Source: Rickettsiales bacterium (lineage in GTDB: Bacteria > Pseudomonadota > Alphaproteobacteria > Rickettsiales > SXRF01). From it: a DNA stretch of 64,000 bases. Below, piece after piece: positions 6,146 to 47,217 of the stretch (within the stretch, counting starts at the first letter, position 1; every line of letters starts with the position of its first letter). The stretch lies in assembly GCA_947459535.1 (NCBI GenBank), contig CANHDY010000001.1, positions 4,653 through 68,652 of the forward strand, written 5' to 3'. The position numbers were made by a program, and so were the translations under genes. The notes under the pieces were generated by a model. It did not search any database, was not told where the DNA came from, and was given only the letters and a program-made list of their open reading frames with translations.

Positions 6146-6984
6146 TGATGCACACCATCCTGATCACGAATGATACCGCGCTGGCTCATGATGCTGAGAC
6201 CGCTGGTGTCAGCCGTATCATGGTGGATCTGGAATCGATTGGCAAAAAAGAGCGTCAGGCCAGCCGCACTACCTTTATCAGCAGCCACACGCTGCAAGAC
6301 ATTGCCGCAATACGCAGCGCCATCCGCAAGGCAGAGCTGATCGTGCGTATCAACCCTCTGCATGCCGGCTCGCCAGAAGAAATCGAAGCTGCAATCGCAT
6401 CGAAAGCAGACTGGGTCATGCTGCCGATGATCACCGCCACCGCTCAGGTAAAAGAAGCGCTGGCGCTTGTAGCTGGCCGCGCGAAGCTGCTACCGCTGAT
6501 CGAAACCGCCTACTCCATGCAGCATCTGGGGGAGATTCTCTCTGACAATGCTATCGGTGAATATTACATCGGGCTTAATGATCTTCATCTTTCACTCGGC
6601 ATGGATTTTCTGTTCGAGCCGCTGGCGCGCGGCATGGTGGATACCATGGCAGCCGAGCTGAAAGCCCATCACAAACCCTTCGGATTTGGCGGTCTGGGCG
6701 CGCTTTCCGGCACCTCAGAACTACCGGCTCTGCAGGTGCTGGCTGAACATGCGCGTCTGGGGTCTAACTGCGTGATTCTTTCGTCACGTTTTCACAAAGA
6801 TCTCGCCCTGTCGGAGGCTGCGGGAAGAAAAGAACGTCTGGCAAGCGCCGTGCGTGAGATACAGCAGCACTACGAAGCGCTCTGCCGCCGCACGCCAACG
6901 CAGCAGATGCAGGATTTCAGCACCACGCGTCATCGCATCCTTGAACTTGCAGACATGGCGCGCCAGAAAAGGATCAGCGCATGA
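6145..6984 (+). CDS. HpcH/HpaI aldolase / citrate-lyase-beta-like protein
   Basis: 'IMVDLES' and an overall TIM-barrel-like pattern. Start set at the ATG at 6145, which overlaps the upstream stop (TGATG). Confidence 0.45.
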   Translation: MMHTILITNDTALAHDAETAGVSRIMVDLESIGKKERQASRTTFISSHTLQDIAAIRSAIRKAELIVRINPLHAGSPEEIEAAIASKADWVMLPMITATAQVKEALALVAGRAKLLPLIETAYSMQHLGEILSDNAIGEYYIGLNDLHLSLGMDFLFEPLARGMVDTMAAELKAHHKPFGFGGLGALSGTSELPALQVLAEHARLGSNCVILSSRFHKDLALSEAAGRKERLASAVREIQQHYEALCRRTPTQQMQDFSTTRHRILELADMARQKRISA

Positions 6985-9151: not shown

Positions 9152-9822
9152 CCATTCTCCTGCTCACCAAAAAAGACCGCTGGTCAGCCCACGCCGCAAG
9201 CCTCACGCAGGCCATGCTGCCATCGCCGGTATTGTGGCATCAGGGACAACCCTCAGATCCCGCGCCAGAGAGCTTTAACCTGCCATCGCTGAAGCTGGTT
9301 ATTTCATTTCTTTCGCCGTGGATTGTGCCTGCCAGCGTGCTTGAAAAAGCTGAGCTTGCCATCAATTTTCACCCGGGATCGTGTGATTACCCCGGCACTG
9401 GCTGCTACAATTTTGCGCTCTATGAAGGTGCTGAAAAGTTTGGCGCGGTGTGCCATCACATGCTGCCGCGTGTGGATACTGGCGCTGTGATTGCCGAAAC
9501 ATTGTTTCCGGTTTTCCCGCACGACACGGTGGAAACGCTCAAACTCAGAACCATGGTCACCATGCTGGAAATGCTGCATGTGCAGCTTGCGCGCTATGCC
9601 AGCGGCGAGCCATTTGCCCATCACCACCGGCAATGGACAAGACCCGCTTTCACACGACGCCAGCTCAACGCGCTGTGCGAAATAACAGAAAACATGCCGC
9701 CGCAGGAAAAGCAGCGCCGCATTCGCGCTACGACCTATCCCGGCTATCCCGGCCCCTACCTGCTCAAAGAAAATGGCGAAAAGATACCCTATCATGTGCC
9801 GCCTGGGCCGCCCCTTGCCTGA
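9148..9822 (+). CDS. formyltransferase-family protein
   Basis: 'INFHPGSCDYPG' and 'HHMLPRVDTGAVI' resemble the formyl_trans_N core. Confidence 0.55.
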   Translation: MTILLLTKKDRWSAHAASLTQAMLPSPVLWHQGQPSDPAPESFNLPSLKLVISFLSPWIVPASVLEKAELAINFHPGSCDYPGTGCYNFALYEGAEKFGAVCHHMLPRVDTGAVIAETLFPVFPHDTVETLKLRTMVTMLEMLHVQLARYASGEPFAHHHRQWTRPAFTRRQLNALCEITENMPPQEKQRRIRATTYPGYPGPYLLKENGEKIPYHVPPGPPLA

Positions 9823-13907: not shown

Positions 13908-14395
13908 TCAAATATTTCGTCGGGATAAACGCCCCAGAGGCGTTTTTTTTCTGCCCAGCCGCGGCGTCCTTCCACTTGAAGCCGGCACCAGTCGCGCTCA
14001 CACTCCATCATCGAGGCAATCACCCCCGGCTTGGCTTTCAGTAGCGGCTTGGCATCGGCCTTGCTGTTGTGAAGCAATAGACACGGCTCCTTGCCGATAA
14101 TCATGGCATAGCGGCTGCCATCGATCATCATTTTATGAACCCAGCCGGTGGCGCCTTCTGCATCACGAATCTTGCGCCAGAAATCAAATTCTTCAATCAC
14201 CTCCACCGGCATATTCTGGCGACGATAAATCCATGCGATGGGATAGCGTGTGCCCGGGCCGGTGCGCACATTCGTCTCTTCATTTTTAAGGCTAACAAAA
14301 CGTGGAATCGGCAGGCCGGAATCCGCCAGCGGCGCGGCAAGGGCAGCGCTCGCCGCAAATATCCCAGATATCAGCCAGAAAAAAACAAATCTCAT
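13904..14395 (-). CDS. secreted SH3-like domain protein (DUF1058-like)
   Basis: Signal peptide, then 'PIPRFVSLK...NVRTGPG' and 'GWVH'. Confidence 0.7.
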   Translation of the reverse strand: MRFVFFWLISGIFAASAALAAPLADSGLPIPRFVSLKNEETNVRTGPGTRYPIAWIYRRQNMPVEVIEEFDFWRKIRDAEGATGWVHKMMIDGSRYAMIIGKEPCLLLHNSKADAKPLLKAKPGVIASMMECERDWCRLQVEGRRGWAEKKRLWGVYPDEIFD

Positions 14396-14416: not shown

Positions 14417-15148
14417 CTACTGGTTTACAATAATCTTTATTGTTCTTGCCTGCCCTAAAAGCCCATCATAGCACCATAGCCTGCCCGAAAGCGACTGGCC
14501 GATGCCAAGCAGCTCCTTGATGGCTTCCAGCGCCTGCATGCTGCCGAGCATGCCAGCAAGCGGGCCGGCAATACCTTCCTGCGCGCAAGTAACCTCGCGC
14601 TGGGGCATCTCATGCACCAGATCGCGGTAGCCGGGGTGCGGCGCGCCAAAGTAGGGTTTAAAGGTGGAAAGCTGCGCTTCAAAACCGCTAATAGCGGCAG
14701 AGATCAGCGGCTTTTTTTCTGCCTCGCAGCTATCGGCCACCACAAACCGCGTGGCAAAATTATCCGAGCCATCCAGCACCACATCAAACTCCCGCACCAA
14801 TTCGCGCGCATTCTCCGCGTGGATGCGGCGCGGAAAAAGCGTCAGTTCCACATCGGGATTCAGCTCATTCACGCGATCCGCCGCCGCCTCGATCTTCAGC
14901 CGCCCCAAATCCCCCATCTCATACATCACCTGCCGCTGCAAATTGGAAAGCTCCACACGGTCATGCTCGCAGATGCCAATATGCCCAATGCCTGCTGCCG
15001 CCAGATAGGAAATCGCCGCGCTTCCTAGCCCGCCCGCGCCAATCACCAGCGCCGATGAAGCAAGCAGCTTTTCCTGCCCGGCCTCGCCGATCTCCGGCAA
15101 AACAAGGTGGCGCGCATAGCGGCGTTTTTGATCGTCGGTGAGTGGCAT
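14417..15148 (-). CDS. moeB: ThiF/MoeB/HesA-family adenylyltransferase
   Basis: 'RYARHL.LPEIG..GQ', 'VIGAGGLGS', 'SNLQRQ'. Confidence 0.8.
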   Translation of the reverse strand: MPLTDDQKRRYARHLVLPEIGEAGQEKLLASSALVIGAGGLGSAAISYLAAAGIGHIGICEHDRVELSNLQRQVMYEMGDLGRLKIEAAADRVNELNPDVELTLFPRRIHAENARELVREFDVVLDGSDNFATRFVVADSCEAEKKPLISAAISGFEAQLSTFKPYFGAPHPGYRDLVHEMPQREVTCAQEGIAGPLAGMLGSMQALEAIKELLGIGQSLSGRLWCYDGLLGQARTIKIIVNQ

Positions 15149-15233
15149 AGGTTTCGTAGGTTGCGAAGGTTACGAAGGTTGCGTAAGCTAAACCTACGAA
15201 ACTTACGAAACATACGCAACCTCCGTAACCTCC
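15149..15233. repeat. nonamer array inverted repeat: ~4x GGTTNCGNA then ~5x TNCGNAACC
   Basis: Read directly. Fills the whole spacer between the divergent start codons at 15148 and 15236. Confidence 0.9.
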
Positions 15234-15235
15234 CA

Positions 15236-15754
15236 ATGCCCTACCGCTTCACCCTTCTCTACCTGCTGCTTATTCCGCTGGTAAACTGGGCATTTTCCTG
15301 GACACCGCTCGTCGCGCTGCCGGACGGCGGCATGTGGTCGCCTTTTTCGATTGCAGTGGGGCTGATTCTGGTGGTGCGTGATTTCGCCCAGCGCGAGATC
15401 GGGCAGTATATCTTCATCCCGCTCATCATCGGGGTGGCGATCTCGTTTCTGATGGCGCCGCCGGAAATCGCCGCCGCTAGCGGCATTGCATTTTTCGTCA
15501 GCGAGCTGGTGGACTGGGCGCTTTACACCTTCACCAAAAAACCGCTTTCCACCCGTGTGATGATCTCCAGCCTCGCCAGCGCGCCGGTCGATAGCATCAT
15601 CTACTTATCTGGTGCAAATATGGCCATTCCCGGCCTCTTCAGCTGGTGGACACTGGGCACCATGATCATAAGCAAATTATTGGGCGCGTATGTAGTGTAT
15701 CGCATACTGAGGAAAAGAGAGCGCTCCTCGTCATTCCCCGAATTTCGCCAGTAG
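15236..15754 (+). CDS. VUT-family (YhhQ/DUF165-like) membrane protein
   Basis: Polytopic profile with 'VVRDFAQREIG' and 'APVDSIIY'. Start set at ATG 15236; the ORF-track N-terminus is a translated repeat. Confidence 0.6.
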   Translation: MPYRFTLLYLLLIPLVNWAFSWTPLVALPDGGMWSPFSIAVGLILVVRDFAQREIGQYIFIPLIIGVAISFLMAPPEIAAASGIAFFVSELVDWALYTFTKKPLSTRVMISSLASAPVDSIIYLSGANMAIPGLFSWWTLGTMIISKLLGAYVVYRILRKRERSSSFPEFRQ

Positions 15755-17298: not shown

Positions 17299-17344
17299 TG
17301 TTTTCTCCTTGTCGTCCCAGATGCAGTTAGCGGGGTCTGGTCAT

Positions 17345-17644
17345 TCAATCGCCATCACCACCAAAATCAGAACTATCATCATTGGAGCCATCTTCATCTT
17401 TTTTGCTGTGGGTACTACCAAATGACCAGCGTCCTGTATCATCAACGGTTATATTCTTTGTATCTGCATTATAATTATACTCACCTGTGGAAGACATCAC
17501 TACAATCCATATGATTGCAAATAACACCATCAAAGGAACTAAATAATTGTATGCAATCCAATGCTTCAGCACAAACCAAATTATCACTTCTGCAATTATC
17601 AACCGCCCTGAAAATAGCCATTTCCAATCAAGATTTTTGAGCAT
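17345..17644 (-). CDS. hypothetical small membrane protein, AT-rich orphan
   Basis: Two hydrophobic helices and an acidic tail. Visibly more AT-rich than its neighbours. No family recognised. Confidence 0.45.
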   Translation of the reverse strand: MLKNLDWKWLFSGRLIIAEVIIWFVLKHWIAYNYLVPLMVLFAIIWIVVMSSTGEYNYNADTKNITVDDTGRWSFGSTHSKKDEDGSNDDSSDFGGDGD

Positions 17645-17659
17645 ACTCAACTCTTTTTT

Positions 17660-17689
17660 CTGGATTACTTCGCTTACGCTCGTAATGAC
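17660..17689. repeat. half element CTGGAT...AATGAC
   Basis: ctggattacttcgcttacgctcgtaatgac. Confidence 0.6.
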
Positions 17690-18924
17690 GATAGTATTTC
17701 CTTCACCAGCCTCTCAGCCACTTGGGTTTTACTCTTCTTCGGCCATGGGTGCTGGCCATCTTTGGAAATGAATATCACCCGATTGTCATCATCACCAAAC
17801 ACTTTACCGCCGGAAACATCGTTGGCAAGCACCCAATCAGCGCCCTTGGCGTGATATTTCTTAGCCGCATGGCTTGCAAGCTTCTCGGTTTCTGCCGCAA
17901 AACCAACCACCAGGCGCGGGCGCTTCGTTTTGTGCTGCGCCACGCTTTTTAAAATATCCGGGTTTTCCTCAAGCTCCAGCGCCGGTTTTTTCCCCGTCTG
18001 TTTTTTGATTTTCTGCGCGGCTGGTTTCACATGCCAGTCCCCCACTGCGGCGGCAAACACCGCCACATCCACCGGAAGCAGCCTGTGCACCGCCTCATGC
18101 ATCTCGCGCGCTGTGGTCACATGCACGACCGAAACACCCGCAGGATCAGCAAGCTGCGTCGGCCCCGAAACCAGCGTCACCTTCACACCCACCTTGGCAA
18201 GCGCCGCCGCAATCGCATGCCCCTGCTTGCCGCTGGAGCGATTGGCAATATAGCGCACCGGATCAATCGGTTCATGCGTCGGGCCAGAGGTGACGAGAGC
18301 GGTGATACTCTTTGACCCCCTCTCCCTTTCAGGGAGAGGGTTGGGGTGAGGGTTATGTCTTTTACCCCCCTCACCCTGCCCTCTCCCCGCAGGGGAGAGG
18401 GTTCTAAGCACCACTTCCACAATCTCCTGCGGCTCGGCCATACGCCCGGGGCCTTCTTCGCCGCAGGCCAGCATGCCGACACCCGGCTCGATCACTTCCG
18501 CGCCGTCAGCCTTGAGCTGCGCCACGTTGCGCTGCGTGGCGGGGTGGCGCCACATCTGCGTGTTCATCGCTGGTGCTACGAGCAGTTTTTTATTGTTAGC
18601 AAGCAGCGTGGCGGTTGCCATATCATCGGCAATCCCATGCACCATCTTGGCGATAATATCGGCAGTTGCAGGTGCCACGAGCAGCAAATCCGTTTCGCGT
18701 GAGAAACGAATATGCCACATGTCCTTCTTTTCCTTGGGCGAGAATAAATCCGTGGAAACGGGATTGCCCGAAAGCTTTTCCAGTTCTTTCACATTCACAA
18801 ATTCGCTGCCGCCGCGCGTGACAATGCAGTGCACACCAATCTTCTTTTGACGCAGCAGGCTAATAAGCGCCGGCGCCTTAATCGCCGCAATCGAACCGCT
18901 GATGATGAGGGTAATGGAGGGCAT
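17674..18924 (-). CDS. coaBC: bifunctional phosphopantothenoylcysteine decarboxylase/synthetase
   Basis: 'ISGSIAAIK', 'PAMN..M', 'VTSGPTHEPIDPVRYIANRSSGKQG'. Start set at 'MPSITLII'; upstream codons are a translated repeat. Confidence 0.9.
   Translation of the reverse strand: MPSITLIISGSIAAIKAPALISLLRQKKIGVHCIVTRGGSEFVNVKELEKLSGNPVSTDLFSPKEKKDMWHIRFSRETDLLLVAPATADIIAKMVHGIADDMATATLLANNKKLLVAPAMNTQMWRHPATQRNVAQLKADGAEVIEPGVGMLACGEEGPGRMAEPQEIVEVVLRTLSPAGRGQGEGGKRHNPHPNPLPERERGSKSITALVTSGPTHEPIDPVRYIANRSSGKQGHAIAAALAKVGVKVTLVSGPTQLADPAGVSVVHVTTAREMHEAVHRLLPVDVAVFAAAVGDWHVKPAAQKIKKQTGKKPALELEENPDILKSVAQHKTKRPRLVVGFAAETEKLASHAAKKYHAKGADWVLANDVSGGKVFGDDDNRVIFISKDGQHPWPKKSKTQVAERLVKEILSSLRA
18316..18403. 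repeat. G/C-rich tripartite palindromic element, family A (CCCTCTCCC..GGGAGAGGG / GGGGTGAGGG..CCCTCACCC / CCCTCTCCCC..GGGGAGAGGG)
   Basis: Three consecutive hairpins read directly. Lies inside coaBC. Confidence 0.85.
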
Positions 18925-18942
18925 AGCTACCACATTTAAAGT

Positions 18943-18970
18943 GTCATCCCGAGCTTGTCGAGGGATCTCA
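18943..18970. repeat. GTCATCCCGAGC-type half element
   Basis: gtcatcccgagcttgtcgagggatctca. Gives the spurious 'EIPRQARDDT' N-terminal extension of the coaBC ORF. Confidence 0.6.
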
Positions 18971-19009
18971 AGATCTTTCGACTTCCCCCGCAATAAATGC
19001 CGGGTTCGC

Positions 19010-21763
19010 TCAAGATGACAACTGTTTTAGTTTATACAGTATCTCCAGCGCTTCTTTTGGCGAGAGTGTATCGGGGTTGATGCTTTCTAACTCTGCCAAA
19101 ACCGTCTCTCCTTTTGCGGGAGGTGGCTGATTGGCGGGGGTAGAAGAATAGCTAAAGAGCGGCAAGCTCGCCGGCACCTCCTGCGAATGTTCTGCCTCAA
19201 GCTGGCGCAGAATCTCGCTGGCGCGGCTTATCACCGGCTCAGGCAGCCCCGCCAGCTTCGCCACGTGAATACCGTAGGAACGATCCGCCGTGCCGCTCGT
19301 CACCTCATGCAGAAACACCAGCTCGCCCTTCCATTCCTTCACTTTCATCGTGTAGCAGGCAAGCGCTGGCAGCGTGCCCGTCAGCTGGGTCAGCTCGTGG
19401 TAGTGGGTGGCAAAAAGTGCGCGCGCTTTGGTCACATGGTGCAGATGCTCCACCACCGCCCACGCGATGGAAAGACCATCAAACGTCGCGGTGCCACGCC
19501 CAATTTCATCAAGGATAATCAGCGAGCGCGAGGTGGCCTGATTCAAAATGGTGGCGGTTTCCACCATCTCCACCATGAAGGTGGATTGCCCGCGCGCCAA
19601 ATCATCCGCCGCGCCCACGCGTGAAAACAGCTTATCCACGATGCCAACACGCGCCGATTCCGCCGGCACAAAACCGCCCATCTGCGCCATGATGGCGATC
19701 AACGCATTCTGGCGCAGGAAGGTTGATTTACCGGCCATGTTCGGGCCGGTGAGCAACCACAAATGCTTATCGGGTGCAAGGCTGGTATCATTGCCGATGA
19801 AAGGTTGCTGGCTGGTTTTGGCCAGCGCCGCCTCCACCACCGGATGACGCCCCTTTCGAATCTCAAACTCCAGCGATCCGTTGATTTCCGGGCGAACATA
19901 ACGGCGTTTGGCGGCAAGCTCAGCCAACGCCGCCACCACATCAAGATGCGCCAGCGCACGTGCGGACGCCACCACGCGCGGCGCGGCGTCAAGCACCTCA
20001 GCGACCAGCTCCGCAAAAATCTCAAGCTCCAGTTTCAGCGCCTTATCACCCGCTTCGCTGATGCTGCGCTCCAGCTCAGAAAGCTCCACGGTGGTGTAGC
20101 GCAGATTATTCGCCAGCGTCTGGCGGTGGATAAAATCCTGCGTCACCTTACTCTGGTGCGCCTGCGTAATTTCAATGTAATAACCAAGAATGTTGTTATA
20201 GCGAATCTTCAGTGTATTGATGCCGGTGGCGTCAATGTAGCGCTGCTGCAGCGCCGCGATGCGCCGCGCGCCCTCATGCTTCAGCGAGCGCAGCTCGTCG
20301 AGCGCCGCATGGTAGCCGCTGGCGATAAAATCACCGTCGCGCGCAAACAGCCCCGCCTCCGGTTTGATCGCGGACTTAAGCCGCTGGATGAGTGTTTCAT
20401 GGCCGCCCAGCTCGCCGCGCTTCTGCGCCAGCTCCTCTGGTAGTGCTGACGAGTCCTGCAGCTCCAGTGCCATGCGAATCTGCTGCGCGGCGTCCAGCGC
20501 CTGAGCAATGGAGAGTAAATCCCTTGGCCCACCGCGCGCAAGCGACAGCCGTGCCAGTGCCCGCTCCATATCTGGCGCATTCTTGAGCTGTTCGCGCACG
20601 GCGCTGCGAAGGCTGGCTTCATCTTTAAACAGCATCACCTGCTCCTGCCGGCGAAGAATCGCCTGTGGGTCGGTCAGCGGCGCGCATAGCCAGCTGGCCA
20701 GCAGCCTTGCGCCGCTGGCGGTGACGGTCTCATCCATTACCCAAAACAGGCTACCCCGGCGCTCGGCGGATAAGGTCTGCATCAGCTCAAGGTTGCGCAG
20801 GCTCGCCGCATCAATCTGCATGTGGCTGGCTGGCAGCTGACGCGTGGGTGCATCCAGACGCGGCATCGCGGTTTTCTGCGTGAGGCGCACATAATCCAGC
20901 AGCACGCCACACGCCGCCAGCTCGCCCGGCATGAAATCCCCAAACACACTCAGCGTCGCCACGGCGTAATACTCGGTCATGATGCGCGTAGCGCGCGCCG
21001 GATCAAACAGATGGGCGGGCAGCCGCGTCAGCTGGCTCTGCCACATCGGCTGCCATGCACTTTGCTCGCCGTCTGCCAGCAGAATCTCGCGCGGGGCAAT
21101 GCGCGAAAGTTCGGCGGCGATCTGCTCCGGCGCCACCATCGCCACACGAAACTCACCGGTGGTGATGTCCAGCCAGGCAAGGCTTGCCGACGCCTGCCCG
21201 CGAGCTGGCGCCACCAACGCGCATAAATACTGCGAACTGCGGCCATCAAGCAGCGTGTCTTCAGTAATCGTTCCCGGCGTCACAATACGCACCACATCGC
21301 GCGCCACCACTGCTTTGTAACCGCGTTTTTTGGCTTCTTCCGGTGTTTCCAGCTGCTCGGCAATGGCCACGCGCAGCCCGGCGCGGATCAGCTTTTCAAG
21401 GTAAGTATCATAGGCATGCACCGGCACGCCGCACATCGGAATATCCTCGCCGGCATGCTTGCCACGCTTGGTCAGCGCAATATCCAGTACCTGCGACGCC
21501 ACCGCTGCATCCTCAAAAAACAGCTCGTAAAAATCGCCCATGCGATAAAACAGCAGACAGTCCGGATGCGCCGCCTTCAGCGCCAGATATTGCGCCATGG
21601 CGGGCGTCGTTTTTTCCTCCCCCCCTTGAGGGAGGAGGTTAGGAGGGGGGGTGACAACTGTTCTGCCTGAGCGTATGTCACCCCCCACCCCGCCCTCCCC
21701 CTCAAGGGGGGAGGGAGAAATATCTTCCAAAACAACTGCTTGTTTAGCCATACCCATTGTCAC
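19010..21763 (-). CDS. mutS: DNA mismatch repair protein MutS
   Basis: 'TPAMAQYL..K....[14 protein letters not shown]', 'GPNMAGKST', 'DEIGRGT'. The N-terminus contains a repeat element, so the start is uncertain. Confidence 0.92.
21616..21716. repeat. tripartite palindromic element, family B (C7/G7 type)
   Basis: cctcccccccttgagggaggagg / gggggggtgaca..tgtcacccccc / ccctccccctcaagggggggaggg. Lies inside the mutS 5' region. Confidence 0.85.
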
Positions 21764-24914: not shown

Positions 24915-24946
24915 CCCTCTGCCTTTGGGAGAGGGTTAGGGGTGAG
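24915..24946. repeat. family A element, partial
   Basis: ccctctgcctttgggagagggttaggggtgag, located between the maeB and relE stop codons. Confidence 0.7.
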
Positions 24947-24951
24947 CGCTT

Positions 24952-25470: not shown

Positions 25471-25572
25471 ACCTGCGTCAAGCAACAAAGATTCTCGAAA
25501 GGCATGCAGCACATTTACCGCTGCCCCGGAAGAGGAAATATTTTCTCATCCCATTGATATAATGGATAAAAT

Positions 25573-25588
25573 TGTTTCACGTGAAACA
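25573..25588. repeat. palindrome TGTTTCACGTGAAACA (copy 1)
   Basis: Perfect 16-bp palindrome with a CACGTG core. Confidence 0.9.
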
Positions 25589-25605
25589 TTTTTCTTGCCC
25601 TCAAT

Positions 25606-25689
25606 CCCCTCTCCCCTCCGAGGAGAGGGTTAGGGTGAGGGGGACAGCGGTTTAGGCCTCTCCCTTCCAGGGAGAGGGTTAGCGGAGGG
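25606..25689. repeat. two family A elements in tandem
   Basis: cccctctcccctccgaggagagggttagggtgaggggg and cctctcccttccagggagagggttagcggaggg. Confidence 0.8.
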
Positions 25690-25698
25690 TTATCTCAA

Positions 25699-25718
25699 AT
25701 TGTTTCACGTGAAACAAT
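25699..25718. repeat. palindrome ATTGTTTCACGTGAAACAAT (copy 2)
   Basis: Perfect 20-bp palindrome. Shares AAATTGTTTCACGTGAAACA with copy 1. Confidence 0.9.
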
Positions 25719-25819
25719 TTTGACAGTGAATGTCACAAATCATCAATACAATTTCACCGACTTTTCACATTCCTTGCCATCGCAGCCTGCTATAATGGGC
25801 GGTATAAAGGAGATACCCC

Positions 25820-36022: not shown

Positions 36023-36850
36023 ATGCTCACCTTCCCCAATATCGACCCCATCGCGCTTGAGCTAGGACCGCTTGCCATTCGCTGGTATTCGCTGGCTTAT
36101 ATTGCAGGGATATTGCTGGGCTGGTGGATTATCGTGCGCGAGCTGGCCGCCCGCCCGCTGGAAAACTTAAATAAAAAAGCCATCGATGACATGATCGTCT
36201 GGGCGATTATCGGCATCATGCTAGGCGGCAGGCTGGGCTACTGCCTGTTTTATAAACCATCTTACTACCTCGAAAATCCGCTGGAAATCCTTCAGCTCTG
36301 GCAGGGCGGCATGTCGTTCCATGGCGGCTTTGCCGGCTTTGTGCTCGCTTTTTATCTTTTCTGCCGCAAATACAACGTACGCTTCCTCGCGCTGATGGAT
36401 CTGATGGCCTGCGTCGCGCCGATTGGCATCGGGCTTGGCCGCCTCGCCAACTTCATCAATGGTGAACTTTATGGCCGCGTTACCGATTCACCGCTCGGCA
36501 TGATCTTCCCACACAGTGACGGCCAGCCGCGCCACCCCAGCCAGCTTTATGAGGCTTTTTCCGAAGGGCTGATTTTATTCATGATCATGATGTGCTTGCT
36601 GAAATTGTCCACACTCCGCGACCGCGCGGGAGCCTTGTCCGGCCTGTTTTGTATCGGTTACGGAACTGCCCGCATTATTTGTGAGTTTTTCCGCGAGCCG
36701 GATGCTTATCTGGGTTTCCTCTTTGCCGGTGCCACCATGGGGCAGCTGCTGAGTCTGCCGATGATTTTCATCGGTATATATCTGATATGGAAATCATCCC
36801 CCTCACCCGCCGCTTCGCGTCCTCCCTCTCCCCGTCGGGGAGAGGGTTAG
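36023..36850 (+). CDS. lgt: prolipoprotein diacylglyceryl transferase
   Basis: 'IRWYSLAYI' and 'GGMSFHGG'. The last ~17 codons and the stop codon lie inside a palindromic element. Confidence 0.9.
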   Translation: MLTFPNIDPIALELGPLAIRWYSLAYIAGILLGWWIIVRELAARPLENLNKKAIDDMIVWAIIGIMLGGRLGYCLFYKPSYYLENPLEILQLWQGGMSFHGGFAGFVLAFYLFCRKYNVRFLALMDLMACVAPIGIGLGRLANFINGELYGRVTDSPLGMIFPHSDGQPRHPSQLYEAFSEGLILFMIMMCLLKLSTLRDRAGALSGLFCIGYGTARIICEFFREPDAYLGFLFAGATMGQLLSLPMIFIGIYLIWKSSPSPAASRPPSPRRGEG

Positions 36851-36860
36851 GGTGAGGGGG
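36798..36860. repeat. family A element (nested hairpins)
   Basis: cccccctcaccc...ccctctccccgtcggggagagggttagggtgaggggg, spanning the lgt 3' end. Confidence 0.85.
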
Positions 36861-36865
36861 TAAAT

Positions 36866-37942
36866 ATGAACGATTTACTTTCCATCATCAAGGAACGCAT
36901 CGCTGAAAACGGGCCGATTCCGGTTTCGGAATATATGAGCCTGTGCCTTGCCCATCCTGAGCATGGCTATTACATGAAACGCGACCCGCTGGGCAAGGAT
37001 GGCGATTTTATTACGTCACCGGAAATCTCTCAGGTTTTTGGGGAATTGCTGGGTCTTTGGATCGCAAACCAGTGGGAAAAGCAAGGAAAGCCAAACGCCA
37101 CCCTGCTTGAAATGGGCCCCGGGCGCGGCACACTGATGAATGACGCCCTGCGCGCCACTAAAAAAATTAAGGGATTGCATGATGCGGTCTCGGTTCGTCT
37201 GCTGGAAATCAGCCCGGCGCTGAAGCAAAAACAATGGCAGCTGCTGGCGGGCAAGCACCATGATCTCGGCTGGCTGGAATCACTCGATTCACTGCCGCTA
37301 GAGCCCCTTTTTGTGGTGGCCAATGAGTTTTTTGACGCCCTGCCAATCAGGCAGTTTGTATGGCAAAATGAGAAGTGGCATGAGCGTTATGTTGGAATGG
37401 ACGGCGATCAACTTAAGTTCGTCATCGCGAGTGAGCGAAGCGAGCGTGGCGATCCAGACTGGATTGCTTCACCTTCGGCTCGCAATGACGGTGAGATTAA
37501 AGAAATTTGTGAACCAGCAACTGAAATCATTTCAAAGATCTCAAGCCATATTAAAACCTATGGCGGCGCGGCGCTCATCATTGATTACGGCTACAATGAA
37601 GGCAACGGCGACACGCTCCAGGCCATGCGTCGCCACCAGTATTTTGAAATATTTTCAAAGCCCGGTAGCGCCGACATCACCGCCCATGTCGATTTCGCCG
37701 CCCTCAAAGAAGCGGCAGAAAAAGCAGGCGCCAAAGTATTTGGCGCGACGCCGCAAGGGCGTTTCCTGATGAAGATCGGCGCCGGCCAGCGCACCCAGAA
37801 ACTCTGCGGAAGCGCCTCGCAGGAACAAAGCAGAGAGCTGATCTCGGGTCTCGATCGCCTCGCTTCCCCGGAAAAAATGGGCGAACTATTCAAAGTGCTG
37901 GCGATATTGCCGCCAGATGCCATGCATGCGGAGGGTTTTTAA
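36866..37942 (+). CDS. MidA/NDUFAF7-family SAM-dependent methyltransferase (DUF185)
   Basis: 'DFITSPEISQVFGEL', 'EMGPGRGTLM'. Carries a 69-bp palindromic element in frame. Confidence 0.8.
   Translation: MNDLLSIIKERIAENGPIPVSEYMSLCLAHPEHGYYMKRDPLGKDGDFITSPEISQVFGELLGLWIANQWEKQGKPNATLLEMGPGRGTLMNDALRATKKIKGLHDAVSVRLLEISPALKQKQWQLLAGKHHDLGWLESLDSLPLEPLFVVANEFFDALPIRQFVWQNEKWHERYVGMDGDQLKFVIASERSERGDPDWIASPSARNDGEIKEICEPATEIISKISSHIKTYGGAALIIDYGYNEGNGDTLQAMRRHQYFEIFSKPGSADITAHVDFAALKEAAEKAGAKVFGATPQGRFLMKIGAGQRTQKLCGSASQEQSRELISGLDRLASPEKMGELFKVLAILPPDAMHAEGF
37421..37489. repeat. compact composite element GTCATCGCGAG...ATCCAGaCTGGAT...CTCGCAATGAC
   Basis: 69 bp. Lies inside the midA-like CDS. 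Confidence 0.85.
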
Positions 37943-38781
37943 TGCTCTTTCCCCTCACCTCTTCCAATCTCGACTTACCACACATCCGCCACGGCTTTTT
38001 CAGCCGCAGTGGCGGCGTGAGTCAGGGTATCTACGCATCGCTGAACTGCGGCCCCGGCTCCGGCGATAATCTGGAACATGTGGGCAAAAACCGCCAGCGC
38101 GTAAGCAGCCACATGGGTGCACCGCTCATCACCTGCCATCAGGTTCACAGCAGCGAGGTGGTGACGGTTGAGATGCCATGGCAGCAAGGGCAGGCACCGC
38201 AGGCCGATGCGATGGTAACGAATCAGCCCGGCATCGCGCTGGGTATCCTGACGGCGGATTGCCTGCCGGTACTTTTTGCTGATCGCAGCCAGCGCATCAT
38301 CGGCGCGGCGCATGCCGGCTGGAAGGGTGCCTTCACCGGCGTACTGGAAAACACCATTGCCGCCATGAAAGCCCTTGGCGCCAGCGACATTGCCTGCGCC
38401 ATTGGCCCCGCCATTTCGCAGCCCTCTTATGAAGTCGGCCCGGAATTTTATGAGCGTTTCACGAAAATATACTCCCCCAGCTTGCGGGGGGAGATAGAGG
38501 GGGGTGATCATGCAACACTGCAAACTCACCCCCCCTACCCCCCCGCAAGCGGGGGGGTAATAAACAATGACCAATTCTTCATCCCCTCTTCCCGCGAAGG
38601 CCATCACCTCTTCGACCTCAAGGGCTATGCGCTGGCGCGGCTCAAAAATGCGGGCGTTGAGGCGGAACTTCTTGACCGCGATACCTGTTTTGAAGATGAT
38701 AGCTTCTTCAGCTTCCGCCGCGCCACCTTAATCGGCGAACGTGGCTATGGCAGGCAGGTTTCGGTAATATCATTAGTATAG
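37942..38781 (+). CDS. pgeF: peptidoglycan editing factor PgeF (YfiH/laccase-domain family)
   Basis: 'QVHSSEVV', 'ADAMVT', 'TADCLPV', 'HAGWKG'. Carries an ~87-bp element in frame. Confidence 0.85.
   Translation: MLFPLTSSNLDLPHIRHGFFSRSGGVSQGIYASLNCGPGSGDNLEHVGKNRQRVSSHMGAPLITCHQVHSSEVVTVEMPWQQGQAPQADAMVTNQPGIALGILTADCLPVLFADRSQRIIGAAHAGWKGAFTGVLENTIAAMKALGASDIACAIGPAISQPSYEVGPEFYERFTKIYSPSLRGEIEGGDHATLQTHPPYPPASGGVINNDQFFIPSSREGHHLFDLKGYALARLKNAGVEAELLDRDTCFEDDSFFSFRRATLIGERGYGRQVSVISLV
38472..38558. repeat. tripartite palindromic element, family B
   Basis: ctcccccagcttgcggggggag / ggggggtga..tcacccccc / acccccccgcaagcgggggggt. Lies inside pgeF. Confidence 0.85.
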
Positions 38782-42144: not shown

Positions 42145-43024
42145 GGTTTGCCTTTAGTTCCTTCGCATACCTAGCCTCAACTGCGTATTTTAGCAACAAA
42201 GTGAGCACGGCCAGTAAGGTCAGCAGCGACGCGACCGCAAACGCCGCTACGAAATTATATTCATTATACAGAATCTCCACATGCAGCGGCACAGTGTTCG
42301 TCTGCCCCTTGATATGGCCGGAAACGACTGACACTGCGCCAAACTCGCCCATCGCCCGTGCATTGCACAGCAGTACGCCGGAGAGCAGCGCCCATTTGAT
42401 ATTGGGCAGCGTCACGCTGATGAAGGTACGAAAGCCCGATGCGCCAAGCAGAATCGCCGCTTCCTCTTCTTCGCTGCCCTGCTCTTCCATCAGCGGAATC
42501 AGCTCACGCGCCACAAACGGAAAGGTGACAAAGATGGTGGCAATCACCAGGCCGGGCACCGCAAAAATAATCTGGATATCGTGTGCAGCGAGCCACTCGC
42601 CCAGCGCCGAATGCGCGCCAAACAGCAGCACATAAATCAGGCCGGAAATCACCGGCGAGACGGAAAACGGCAAATCAATGAAGGTGATGAGCAGGCGCTT
42701 GCCGGCAAATTCATATTTGGCAATCGCCCAGGAGGCGCAGAGGCCAAACACCACATTAAACGGCACCGCAATCGCCGCCACCAGCAACGTGAGCTCGATG
42801 GCCGACAGCGCATGGCGGTGGGCAAGCGCATCTGCGTAAGCCTCCCAGCCCTTTGCAAACGCTTCTGCAAAAACCACCGCCAGCGGCAACGCCACCAGCG
42901 CCAGCATGAAGCCAAGCGCGACAGCAATGAGCACCAACTTCACCCACCATGGCTCTCCTAAAATCTCCCTCTCCCTTTTAGGGAGAGGGTTGGGGTGAGG
43001 GTTATCAGTCCAAATGACGCTCAT
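42134..43024 (-). CDS. cysW: sulfate ABC transporter permease CysW
   Basis: Permease EAA-type region '[15 protein letters not shown]'. The first ~20 codons lie in a repeat element, so the start is uncertain. Confidence 0.85.
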
Positions 43025-43062
43025 AAAACCCCCCTCCTAACCTCTCCCCTTAAGGGGGGAGG
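42967..43062. repeat. family A-like tripartite element at the cysT/cysW junction
   Basis: ccctctcccttttagggagagggttggggtgaggg ... cctctccccttaaggggggagg. Confidence 0.85.
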
Positions 43063-43876
43063 AATATCTGGATTGTAACCAGTTAATGAGTAGCAGCAAC
43101 GCGAATGATGCAAGCAGCATCACGCAGGCGATGGCGGTGGCGCCTGCCACATCATATTGCTCCAGCTTCACAACAATCAGAAGCGGCACAATTTCCGACA
43201 CGCCGGGAATATTGCCCGCGATAAAAATCACCGAGCCATATTCGCCGAGCGCGCGGGCAAAGGCCATGGCAAAGCCGGTCGCGAGCGCCGGTAGCACCGA
43301 AGGCAATAACACGCGCGTAAAAAGCTGCCAGCGCGAAGCGCCAAGGCTCACCGCCGCCTCTTCCACCTCGCGGTCAATGTCTTTTAAGACCGGCTCCACC
43401 GTGCGCACGACAAACGGCAGCCCGACAAATACCAGCGCTGCAAAAATCCCCAGCGGCGTGAACGCCACCTTGATGCCAAGCTCATTAAGCGGAGCGCCGA
43501 GCCAGCCGCTGGGGCCATAAAGCGTCGCCAGCGCGATGCCAGCCACCGCCGTCGGCAGGGCAAAGGGTAAATCCACCATCGCATCTAACATTTTGCGACC
43601 GGCAAAACGGTAGCGCACCAGCACCCACGCGAGAATCAGCCCGAAACATGCGTTCACCGCCGCCGCCGCCAGCGCAAGGCCAAAGCTTATTTTATAAGCA
43701 TGCACCACGCGATCAGAGGTCACGGCTTTCATGATCTCCGGCCAGCTGAGCGTGGCTGTTTTCACAAACAGTCCGGCCAGCGGAATCACCACCACCAGCA
43801 GCAGCGCCGCCAGCGTAAACGCCATGGTGATGCCAAAGCCCGGCAGAATGGAAGGTTGTTTGAGTTTCATATACAT
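43037..43876 (-). CDS. cysT: sulfate ABC transporter permease CysT
   Basis: 'EEAAVSLGASRWQLF'. The last 8 codons and the stop codon lie in a repeat element. Confidence 0.85.
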   Translation of the reverse strand: MYMKLKQPSILPGFGITMAFTLAALLLVVVIPLAGLFVKTATLSWPEIMKAVTSDRVVHAYKISFGLALAAAAVNACFGLILAWVLVRYRFAGRKMLDAMVDLPFALPTAVAGIALATLYGPSGWLGAPLNELGIKVAFTPLGIFAALVFVGLPFVVRTVEPVLKDIDREVEEAAVSLGASRWQLFTRVLLPSVLPALATGFAMAFARALGEYGSVIFIAGNIPGVSEIVPLLIVVKLEQYDVAGATAIACVMLLASFALLLLINWLQSRYSSPLKGRG

Positions 43877-43878
43877 AC

Positions 43879-43956
43879 GTCATGGCGAGCGTAGCGAAGC
43901 CATCCAGTTTGGCAAGTCTGGATTGCCGCGTCGGCCTTTGGCCTCCTCGCAATGAC
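43879..43956. repeat. compact composite element GTCATGGCGAG...ATCCAG..CTGGAT...CTCGCAATGAC
   Basis: Read directly. Lies between the cysT start and the recJ stop. Confidence 0.85.
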
Positions 43957-43960
43957 GGAA

Positions 43961-45844: not shown

Positions 45845-46502
45845 AAACGTGCCCCGCGAACATATCACCCCGAACATCGACTATATCCGCAAGCTCTACG
45901 CGCCGCAAGACAGCTTGCTAGCCAGCATTGCCGACACATTGAAAAAGCTGGATATCGCGTGGCAGGTAGGCCCCGAAGAGGGCAAGCTGCTGCAGCTGCT
46001 CATTCGCCTAAGCGGCGCGCGGCGCGTGGTGGAAATCGGCACGCTTGTTGGCTATTCCACGATCTGGATGGCGCGCGCCCTGCCAGATGGCGGCCAGATT
46101 TTCACCATCGGCAAAGACCCTGAGCATAATGCCATGGCGAAACATTTTTTTGACCAGTCCGATGTGGCTGAGCGCATCACCCTGCTCGAGGGCGACGCGC
46201 ACCTGATCCTGCCGGTGCTTTCCAAACAAGCGCCTTACGATATGGTGTTTATCGATGCCGATAAAATCAGCTATCCGGATTATCTGGATTGGGCAGAGGA
46301 AAATATCCGCCCCGGCGGGCTGATTGTGGCAGATAACACGCTGCTGTTTGATGCCGCTTCGCTGGATGCACCGCCGCCCGGCATTGCCCCCAAAACATGG
46401 CAGGCCATGCGCCGCTTTAACGAACGCTTAGCCGATAAAAATAAATTCTTCGGGCTGATTATTCCGACCGCGGAAGGAATGAGCGTGGCGGTGAAAATGT
46501 GA
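45840..46502 (+). CDS. class I O-methyltransferase (caffeoyl-CoA OMT/YrrM-like)
   Basis: 'VVEIGTLVGYSTIWMA', 'FIDADK'. The start ATG lies in the GGGATGAC repeat terminus, so the start is uncertain. Confidence 0.8.
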   Translation: MTNVPREHITPNIDYIRKLYAPQDSLLASIADTLKKLDIAWQVGPEEGKLLQLLIRLSGARRVVEIGTLVGYSTIWMARALPDGGQIFTIGKDPEHNAMAKHFFDQSDVAERITLLEGDAHLILPVLSKQAPYDMVFIDADKISYPDYLDWAEENIRPGGLIVADNTLLFDAASLDAPPPGIAPKTWQAMRRFNERLADKNKFFGLIIPTAEGMSVAVKM

Positions 46503-46504
46503 CT

Positions 46505-46667
46505 GTCATCCCGGAAAATTTTGCAGGAGCAAAATTTATCCGGGATCCAGTGAAGCAAAAAGTCAAAAGACTTTTTGTGTTTTACTATTTGACGACCAAA
46601 GTCTACTGACTTTGATCTTTTCTGGATCCCGTGCTCGCTACGCTACTGCTTCGCTCCACGGGATGAC
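46505..46667. repeat. composite element with two internal GTC..GAC hairpins
   Basis: gtcatcccggaaaatttt..aaaatttatccgggatccag + hairpins at 46555-46577 and 46597-46614 + ctggatcccgtgctcgc..gctccacgggatgac. Confidence 0.85.
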
Positions 46668-46671
46668 GGCT

Positions 46672-47217
46672 TCAATACCCAAGCACGTCCAGAATTTCTT
46701 CGAGCTCATCAACCACATGATAATAGGTCGCGACTTCGGTTTTGGCGAATTTCTGCTCGATGATGTTTTTCATCAGCGCAATCAGCGGATCCCAGTAGCC
46801 CTGATAGTTAAAAATAATGACCGGCTTATCGTGCAGCAGCAGCTGCTTCCACGTTAAAATCTCAAACATCTCATCCATGGTGCCGAAGCCGCCGGGGAAC
46901 ACAATAAAGGCATCCGAGCGGTCAAACATGTTCTGTTTGCGCTCGTGCATGGTGTTCACGATGATGATTTCAGTGAGCGACTGATGCTCGTTTTCGATGT
47001 TGCGAAGTGATACTGGGAATACACCCGTCACATGGCCGCCGGCCTTCATGGTCGAGTTCGCCACCGCGCCCATCACACCGCAATCACCGCCGCCATAAAC
47101 GAGCGTGATGCCGCGCGAGGCAAGCAGCTTTCCGAATTCAGCACCGATATCGAGGAATTTTTTATCAACCGCATTGGATGCGCCGCAAAAGACGCACAGA
47201 GATTTGTTTTGTTTCAT
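46672..47217 (-). CDS. LOG-family (TIGR00730) nucleotide phosphoribohydrolase
   Basis: 'VYGGG..GVMG', 'PGGFGTMDE'. Confidence 0.85.
   Translation of the reverse strand: MKQNKSLCVFCGASNAVDKKFLDIGAEFGKLLASRGITLVYGGGDCGVMGAVANSTMKAGGHVTGVFPVSLRNIENEHQSLTEIIIVNTMHERKQNMFDRSDAFIVFPGGFGTMDEMFEILTWKQLLLHDKPVIIFNYQGYWDPLIALMKNIIEQKFAKTEVATYYHVVDELEEILDVLGY

Follow-up and report, generated by a model that had tools for sequence, protein, structure and literature searches.

An inverted boxC/PIT/TMECO repeat pair lying in frame in the CoaC-CoaB linker of coaBC

The coaBC locus and its palindromic element

We analyzed a 64-kb stretch of DNA (64,000 nucleotides, hereafter the window) from an uncultured Rickettsiales bacterium, in which coaBC is interrupted between its CoaC and CoaB halves by an 88-bp palindromic element. 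By its sequence, the element is an inverted pair of the repeat known as boxC, PIT (potential intrastrand triplex) or TMECO. The gene, its two Pfam domains and the parts of the element are as follows.

17674..18927, minus strand: coaBC coding sequence, 417 aa from ATG, frame intact
18400..18918, minus strand: CoaC domain (Flavoprotein, PF02441), residues 4-176
17767..18303, minus strand: CoaB domain (DFP, PF04127), residues 209-387
18316..18403, minus strand: inverted boxC/PIT/TMECO pair, 88 bp, in frame as coaBC residues T176-G204
18318..18352, plus strand: unit 1, CCCTCTCCC-TTTCA-GGGAGAGGG-TTG-GGGTGAGGG, an exact match to the published TMECO pattern
18368..18401, minus strand: unit 2, in reversed orientation, CCCTCTCCC-CTGCG-GGGAGAGGG-CA-GGGTGAGGG, with a second loop of 2 nt instead of 3
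18344..18376, no strand assigned: central stem formed by the third arms of both units, GGGTGAGGG/CCCTCACCC, with a 15-nt AT-rich loop

The original prediction, made from the letters of the window alone, had described three consecutive hairpins at 18316-18403, and this was correct in every checkable detail. Perfect inverted repeats were found at 18318-18327/18331-18340 (CCCTCTCCCT/AGGGAGAGGG, 10 nt with a 3-nt gap), 18344-18352/18368-18376 (GGGTGAGGG/CCCTCACCC, 9 nt with a 15-nt gap) and 18379-18388/18392-18401 (CCCTCTCCCC/GGGGAGAGGG, 10 nt with a 3-nt gap). An outer palindrome of 28 nt with 82% complementarity was also found, and the two outer hairpins of the element are 25-nt direct repeats placed 61 bp apart. 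The boxC unit of 35 nt is laid out as a C-rich arm, a loop, a G-rich arm, 2-3 nt and a second G-rich arm; the element that had been termed tripartite is better read as two inverted units of this kind whose third arms pair with each other. The window-wide listing of inverted repeats held mostly unrelated short palindromes. GGGAGAGGG occurred 12 times in the window versus 0.31 expected, a count reached in none of 100 shuffles, and GGGTGAGGG occurred 6 times versus 0.36 expected. The mRNA strand of the element had a predicted folding energy of -64.5 kcal/mol (z = -6.6), and the DNA strand was predicted to fold into three hairpins at -31.8 kcal/mol (z = -6.5).

We considered whether a chimeric repeat had been collapsed into the gene during assembly or binning, which is what the general difficulty of assembling repeats in metagenome-assembled genomes would suggest; nothing else spoke for it. 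An independent ENA metagenome contig (L008) was identical, with 0 differences in 1320 bp, and the element was also found in the NCBI metagenome-assembled genome GCA_033763775.1 and in a Logan assembly. In all, four independent assemblies from different sources carry the element in coaBC, and the flanks are collinear with those of relatives. The element is therefore no assembly artefact, an explanation that we find barely credible.

Identity of the element as boxC/PIT/TMECO

Judged by its sequence, the coaBC element is a pair of a known repeat and is not itself new. Earlier work on boxC and PIT is said to include that of Bachellier in the 1990s and of Hoyne and Maher in 2000 and 2002. The motif was first named boxC, then PIT and then TMECO. 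Holder et al. (2015, PMC4666352) give the TMECO pattern as 5'-CCCTCNCCC-N3-6-GGGNGAGGG-N3-GGGNGAGGG-3' and count 3610 copies across 262 genomes of Proteobacteria. The 23 copies of E. coli K-12 are "always located intergenically", and five K-12 pairs stand "in an inverted repeat configuration". A single strand of the motif forms a triplex in vitro, and PIT elements in E. coli had no promoter or terminator activity and no in vivo effect (PMC4666352).

The strict TMECO pattern was matched exactly at 18318-18352 on the plus strand, one of 3 matches in the window versus 0 expected, and the minus-strand unit departed from it solely in its 2-nt second loop. We searched 5426 complete E. coli genomes by blastn with 101 nt around the coaBC element as the query. 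It matched 4430 of these genomes, and in 3550 of the 5426 a single alignment covered query positions 8-92 (84%) at 78-79% identity. Such full alignments always fell in unannotated intergenic DNA; in a K-12 example, the pair between mrcB and hrpB, the architecture matched that of the coaBC element column by column. Copies were also dispersed in the window, with about eight boxC loci in 64 kb and pairs at coaBC, mutS, pgeF and 42964-43065. The intergenic location described for K-12 did not apply, as the element lies inside the coaBC open reading frame (ORF) between two Pfam domains; that location is a descriptive trait of one species and no structural definition of the boxC family. The original prediction had called the sequence different from that of Rickettsia palindromic elements (RPEs), which is true of RPEs but misses the identity with the long-known and widespread boxC/PIT/TMECO.

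An Rfam gathering scan of the whole window gave no match, so that no Rfam family covers the coaBC element, and no candidate came from a word-indexed search of proteins in which the insert and its surroundings served as a 41-aa query. An exhaustive HMMER search with a 34-aa peptide against 1.84 billion representatives returned 5 matches only; we discarded these as a census of host proteins, because all 5 were spurious ORFs over repeat arrays (HPHPNPLPSRERG...).

Position of the insert in CoaBC

Residues 176-204, encoded by the element, fall exactly between the Flavoprotein and DFP domains of the coaBC product. The insert has a length divisible by three and is free of stops, so that the coaBC ORF continues through it, and its translation as predicted from the ORF is about 29 residues rich in Gly, Pro, Arg and Glu. 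In an alignment of 25 homologs, all invariant residues were retained in the window coaBC. The AlphaFold2 model had a mean pLDDT of 83, with residues 180-205 below 50 and in coil, and this stretch is flanked by the final helix of CoaC (166-177) and the initial strand of CoaB (209-214). Alignment to the solved M. smegmatis CoaBC, 6TGV (E = 6e-75), opened a gap between chain residues 180 and 181. The insert is thus predicted to be disordered and to occupy a small inter-domain loop of CoaBC. An in-frame insertion in the CoaC-CoaB linker had been proposed at the outset, with mapping onto a structure as a check; the open ORF and the domains on both sides bear out the position, and the model and 6TGV agree in placing the insert in a loop.

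At the other end of the gene, the coaBC C-terminus SSLRA* with its stop derives from half of a GTCATTRCGAGC palindromic repeat at window positions 17655-17695. A coaBC-dut spacer of about 350 bp (17300-17670) follows and holds an AT-rich 101-aa ORF (17345-17650); the relative L001 is without this spacer, and its coaBC and dut overlap.

Insertion at a repeatedly occupied linker site

We measured the linker between GRMAE and xVTSGPT in 120 homologs. The modal linker was 24 aa, found in about 60 of the 120, versus 46 aa in the window coaBC. The net gain is therefore about 22 aa, less than the insertion of about 30 aa first supposed, and most orthologs are without the insert. The closest relative, P0001 (93% identity), has the same insert, and short linkers were found in P0003 (78-81% identity), P0004 (71-74%) and P0006-P0011. 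In a neighbor-joining tree of CoaBC computed without the variable linker, the window sequence and P0001 were nested among P0002, P0003 and P0004, all three free of the boxC insert. An ancestral linker common to repeat-free genomes was looked for in these homologs and was not found. The alignments and the tree support the view that the segment is an insertion and no ancestral linker.

The same site was occupied in other lineages. In L004 (protein P0016, 57% identity), a boxC pair lies at the same place in coaBC, with the same stems and with other loops and another central spacer; P0016 belongs to a distant clade, and linkers elsewhere in that clade measure 24-25 aa. The linker pair of L187 (P0013) is another variant, CCTCCCCCC/GGAGGGGGG with a TTA loop, and is read in a different frame (...EVRRG...PLPNPPPAGEG). 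The linker of L186 (P0050) is of ordinary length and contains, in frame, a solo hairpin, CCCTCTCCCCGCAGGGAGAGGG (LSPQGEG); a pair whose outer hairpins had recombined with each other would be reduced to such a remnant. P0002, P0005, P0012 and P0045 have unrelated palindromic repeats at this linker site, which translate as 'SLAMT'-type and 'CGMTG'-type sequences. None of four independent linker copies has a stop codon. On these comparisons, at least three lineages carry boxC pairs in the coaBC linker that differ in variant or frame, and several independent events have struck one stretch of 5-7 residues.

The window and P0016 copies share the frame and an unusual second loop, the 2-nt CA, which was seen in 9 of 197 boxC units in a broad sample. 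In this frame the canonical 3-nt loop would produce a GGG-TGA-GGG stop, and the shared CA loop can thus be explained by selection for an open frame. Lateral transfer of the coaBC segment between the two was rejected, as similarity in the DNA flanking the element does not exceed that in the remainder of coaBC.

An ancestral linker, or a single ancient insertion that was precisely lost in most lineages, would account for the common position, frame and rare CA loop of these two copies, and the P0050 hairpin shows that collapse occurs. Against this, at least 10 independent precise losses would be needed on the tree, P0013 has another variant that is read in another frame, and the loops and central spacer are wholly different between the window and L004. 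The pgeF element described below also differs between genomes of 93% identity. We regard an ancient origin as very improbable.

Other palindromic repeats in the window and in relatives

The window holds further copies of boxC or its variants.

38471..38560, plus strand: variant pair (CTCCCCC..GGGGGGAG type), in frame in pgeF/yfiH (ORF 37942-38781), encoding YSPSLRGEIEGGDHATLQTHPPYPPASGGV
21614..21715, minus strand: variant pair, an in-frame part of the N-terminal extension of mutS (ORF 19010-21763)
36800..36860, plus strand: boxC unit with an upstream CCCCTCACCC arm, forming the last ~17 residues of lgt
42964..43065, no strand assigned: boxC unit 42967-43001 (intergenic) and inverted variant unit 43031-43065
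25606..25700, plus strand: two tandem direct boxC-like units, intergenic
24917..24950, plus strand: degenerate boxC unit just 3' of the maeB stop codon, intergenic

Comparison of pgeF with the Caulobacter structure 1XFJ showed 35 query residues where the structure has 6, and the pair adds about 29 residues in a loop. The pair was absent from the pgeF ortholog of GCA_033763775.1 (94% protein and 93% DNA identity), and P0134 (65% identical; L130) has a similar variant at the same loop. At the filled site, about 21 bp of host sequence had been replaced rather than split, with no duplication visible in comparison with the empty site.

In mutS, the conserved start MAKQAVVL precedes the pair and the MutS_I domain follows it. 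The mutS of L001 also has a pair here, likewise in frame and with different stems and loop, and that of L004 has none. The stems of the window and L001 copies are kept by paired changes, and in both genomes the only usable mutS start codon is upstream of the element. This start bears on the possibility that such elements stay untranslated, with coaBC being a pseudogene or split gene, or with the insert bypassed in translation or removed from the mRNA. Such bypass has a precedent in some yeast mitochondria, where translation skips GC-rich palindromic inserts. But the coaBC insert has an open frame and a length divisible by three, no stop occurs in the four linker copies, and both CoaBC domains keep all their invariant residues. 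Together with the mutS starts, this makes an untranslated element highly improbable.

Several copies lie at or beyond the ends of genes, and three of the window boxC loci are intergenic. The lgt product ends in ...SPSPAASRPPSPRRGEG*, its TAG stop supplied by the TTA loop of the boxC unit; in the close relative L129, unrelated hairpins stand at the end of lgt instead. The variant unit at 43031-43065 gives the C-terminal SSPLKGRG* of an ABC permease (ORF 43037-43876), and both units at 42964-43065 are conserved in L129. The Methyltransf_28 ORF (36866-37942, plus strand) contains a different palindrome, GTCATCGCGAG...CTCGCAATGAC at 37421-37489, in frame as FVIASERSERGDPDWIASPSARNDG, and the methyltransferase of L129 has two single boxC units in frame (9401-9440 and 9527-9551), one of them at the site of the window repeat. 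In L004, a boxC pair at 6689-6791 lies within a ThiF-family gene whose called ORF reads through it (301 aa versus 241-247 in relatives).

Several further palindromic elements are present or absent between the window and L129 or L001. At least two other families have GTCAT...ATGAC ends, GTCATCCCG...CGGGATGAC and GTCATTGCGAGC...CTCGCAATGAC, at window positions 18940-19020, 43876-43960 and 46500-46680 and in L129 at 14168-14265; such elements are found in one of two genomes of 93% identity and are absent from the other at the same sites. By these comparisons the lineage is rich in small palindromic repeats, which appear to turn over within about 7% nucleotide divergence. A 24-bp palindrome, AAATTGTTTCACGTGAAACAATTT, has two copies (25568-25593 and 25697-25720) directly flanking the tandem boxC units, and these may be a duplicated operator. 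In the corresponding region of L008, an RHH/ParE toxin-antitoxin pair was called between the malic-enzyme gene and a 122-aa ORF, at an unchecked distance from AAATTGTTTCACGTGAAACAATTT. Nested inverted repeats of 15-19 nt (TAGGTTTCGTAGGTT/AGGTTACGAAGGTTGCGTA...) at 15148-15231, at the start of ORF 15107-15754, are unrelated to boxC.

Distribution of boxC pairs among bacteria

A scan for the pair core over 185,579 species genomes found at least 120 loci. Among the matches listed were Pseudomonadota, Planctomycetota, Chloroflexota, Myxococcota, Nitrospirota, Desulfobacterota and Vampirovibrionales, and the boxC pair thus reaches beyond the Proteobacteria, the range given for the motif in 2015. 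Of 130 sampled pairs, 42 were spanned by an open frame with at least 60 codons on each side, and 30 of these 42 candidates were checked with Pfam. Domains on both sides were found for 6 pairs, in Mfd, an HrpB-like helicase, IcmF, MnmE, IleRS and a LysC-LysA fusion, with a pair in Xdh as an ambiguous seventh case. None of 20 further candidates had Pfam domains on both sides, so that 42 of 130 is an over-count and the supported number is 6-7 of 130. Truly intragenic pairs thus make up about 5% of this sample versus 3 of 8 loci in the window (Fisher p = 0.013). The IleRS pair belongs to Sphingomonas hominis HHU CXW (L070, 4855-4960), and the other in-frame pairs are on L009, L033, L063, L065 and L072, from unrelated bacteria. 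The core pattern was also present on 55 viral or proviral contigs of IMG/VR (L131-L185), which are a possible vehicle for the spread of the pair across phyla.

Proposed origin and maintenance of the insert

We think it probable that a boxC pair landed in the CoaC-CoaB loop and was retained there as an in-frame, RPE-like passenger filtered by selection. The element would be selfish or neutral, with selection acting as a filter only, and survival inside genes would need loops and lengths that keep the frame together with tolerant linkers, loops or termini. The stems CCCTCNCCC/GGGNGAGGG are stop-free in two of three frames, where they encode only Pro, Ser and Leu or Gly, Arg and Glu; the only sources of stops are the TTA loop, which gives TAG or TAA, and GGG-TGA-GGG, and therefore the loop variant and the frame decide survival. 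In coaBC, the upstream unit would shift the frame through its second loop, the 2-nt CA, and so avoid the in-frame TGA of a 3-nt loop. The same filter could explain the repeated colonization of the linker as well as the copies that form C-terminal tails and stop codons. Pairs would then decay to a solo hairpin by recombination between the 25-nt outer direct repeats. Gain or loss between genomes about 93% identical shows, as far as their sequences tell, recent turnover of the elements. Copies may spread by being mobilized in trans as a single strand folded into hairpins, much as Y1 transposases and RAYTs act, a step that we propose by analogy and with low confidence. The 8-nt flanks of the window copies were 77% A+T versus 45% overall (direct count). 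A logo of the sequences flanking 34 complete pairs, all taken from other genomes, showed no target consensus, and the first two flanking bases only extend the pyrimidine stem.

Four points stand against this reading. The insert peptide is a prediction from the open frame. The window and P0016 copies might have a common origin, as an old insertion lost many times or through transfer. We found no target-site duplication or conserved target, and no transposase among those ORFs of the 64 kb that were scanned, and mobility is deduced solely from presence and absence between genomes. Finally, the window and L001 disagree at 1 of the 88 positions of the coaBC element; elsewhere in the gene they differ by a mean of 7.0 per 88 bp, for the most part at third codon positions. 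This hints at a constraint on nucleotide sequence or structure beyond that on a neutral passenger.

This low divergence leads to the alternative of a functional module, in which a stable mRNA structure, or DNA prone to triplex or G-quadruplex formation, is under selection at the domain boundary. It might act as a ribosome pause that lets CoaC fold or assemble before CoaB emerges, or tune coaBC expression, or the Gly/Pro/Arg/Glu peptide might be a useful flexible spacer in the dodecamer. The strength of the predicted mRNA fold, the paired stem changes between the mutS copies and the recurrence of insertions exactly at domain boundaries in several proteins would all fit such a role. However, most orthologs do without the insert, even those 78-81% identical, the linker site of other lineages is taken by unrelated repeat families, and the same element is also intergenic or in C-terminal tails. 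The lack of promoter, terminator or in vivo effects of PIT in E. coli (PMC4666352) points the same way, and we consider a functional module quite unlikely. We give a small chance to a broader proposal, in which boxC pairs are an active, site-directed mobile element that crosses phyla and whose structure is kept by selection once it is inside genes. Site direction is suggested by the pairs of at least three lineages at the same coaBC codon and of two lineages at the same pgeF loop, and selection on structure by an element more conserved than its host gene and by the paired stem changes. If this were true, a very stable mRNA or DNA structure at a domain boundary might be what is useful, for example for a co-translational pause, and boxC pairs would be a general and overlooked source of bacterial inter-domain linkers.

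The passenger reading, which we prefer, combines what was known with what appears to be new. The boxC element is already known, as are in-frame palindromic repeats inside genes (RPEs of Rickettsia, GTAG/CGTC REPs). What appears new is the apparent translation, within essential genes, of a much-studied "intergenic" motif such as boxC, together with the repeated strikes on one linker. We found no paper reporting either, which is weak evidence given an incomplete coverage of the literature. The finding joins two literatures, one on boxC/PIT/TMECO as an enigmatic intergenic DNA-structure motif since the 1990s and the other on RPEs and intragenic REPs as the textbook example of selfish DNA persisting within genes. 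The in-frame pairs (coaBC, pgeF, mutS; IleRS, Mfd, MnmE, IcmF), their recurrence in the same loop and their turnover at 93% identity give it a bearing on protein evolution and genome annotation, and it also bears on the spread of repeats. For annotation, peptides like HPHPNPLP.RERG and GRGQGEG flag stretches that derive from the repeat. Direct experimental handles are offered by the pgeF site, which is polymorphic, and by Sphingomonas hominis, of which a cultured strain has the IleRS pair.

Comparison with known systems

The coaBC element resembles the boxC/PIT/TMECO copies of E. coli K-12 in its pattern, its inverted pairing and its dispersed copies, with about 79% identity to them. It differs in that the K-12 copies are intergenic whereas the coaBC pair is in frame within an essential gene, in its host, an uncultured alphaproteobacterium, and in the 2-nt second loop of one unit.

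REPs are likewise short GC-rich hairpins, often inverted dimers, that occur within genes, often those of modular proteins, repair enzymes and tRNA synthetases among them; in-frame GTAG/CGTC singles and dimers encoding 20-30 aa were described outside Rickettsia (Di Nocera et al. 2013, PMC3733652). The boxC unit, in contrast, has a third G-rich arm, and none of the REP tags GTAG, CTAC, CGTC and GACG was found in 18308-18412. We know of no RAYT for boxC. ERIC and RU-1/2/3 (Delihas 2007, PMC2759123) are also small repeats with open frames and in-frame fusions, but they exceed boxC in size, carry terminal inverted repeats and come from other sequence families. In comparison with miniature inverted-repeat transposable elements, the whole coaBC element is a palindrome.

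The closest parallel in behavior is with RPEs (Ogata 2000 Science; Ogata 2002 Genome Res; reviewed in PMC10969869), palindromic repeats translated in frame in unrelated housekeeping genes, at spots where the fold tolerates them and in many genes per genome. The original prediction had drawn this parallel, and it stands as a likeness in apparent translation within an essential gene. The coaBC element is a palindrome in frame in a housekeeping ORF at a position compatible with the fold, which shows likeness to RPEs and not membership. It is GC-rich where RPEs are AT-rich, is unrelated to them in sequence family by their description, and measures 88 bp versus about 150 bp for RPEs (PMC10969869); boxC spans more than one genus, and the encoded peptide is of low complexity and predicted to be disordered. 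We did not file the element as an RPE because it is explained as boxC, is GC-rich and has a host other than Rickettsia. A mechanism like that of RPEs has been suggested as possibly general (PMC10969869).

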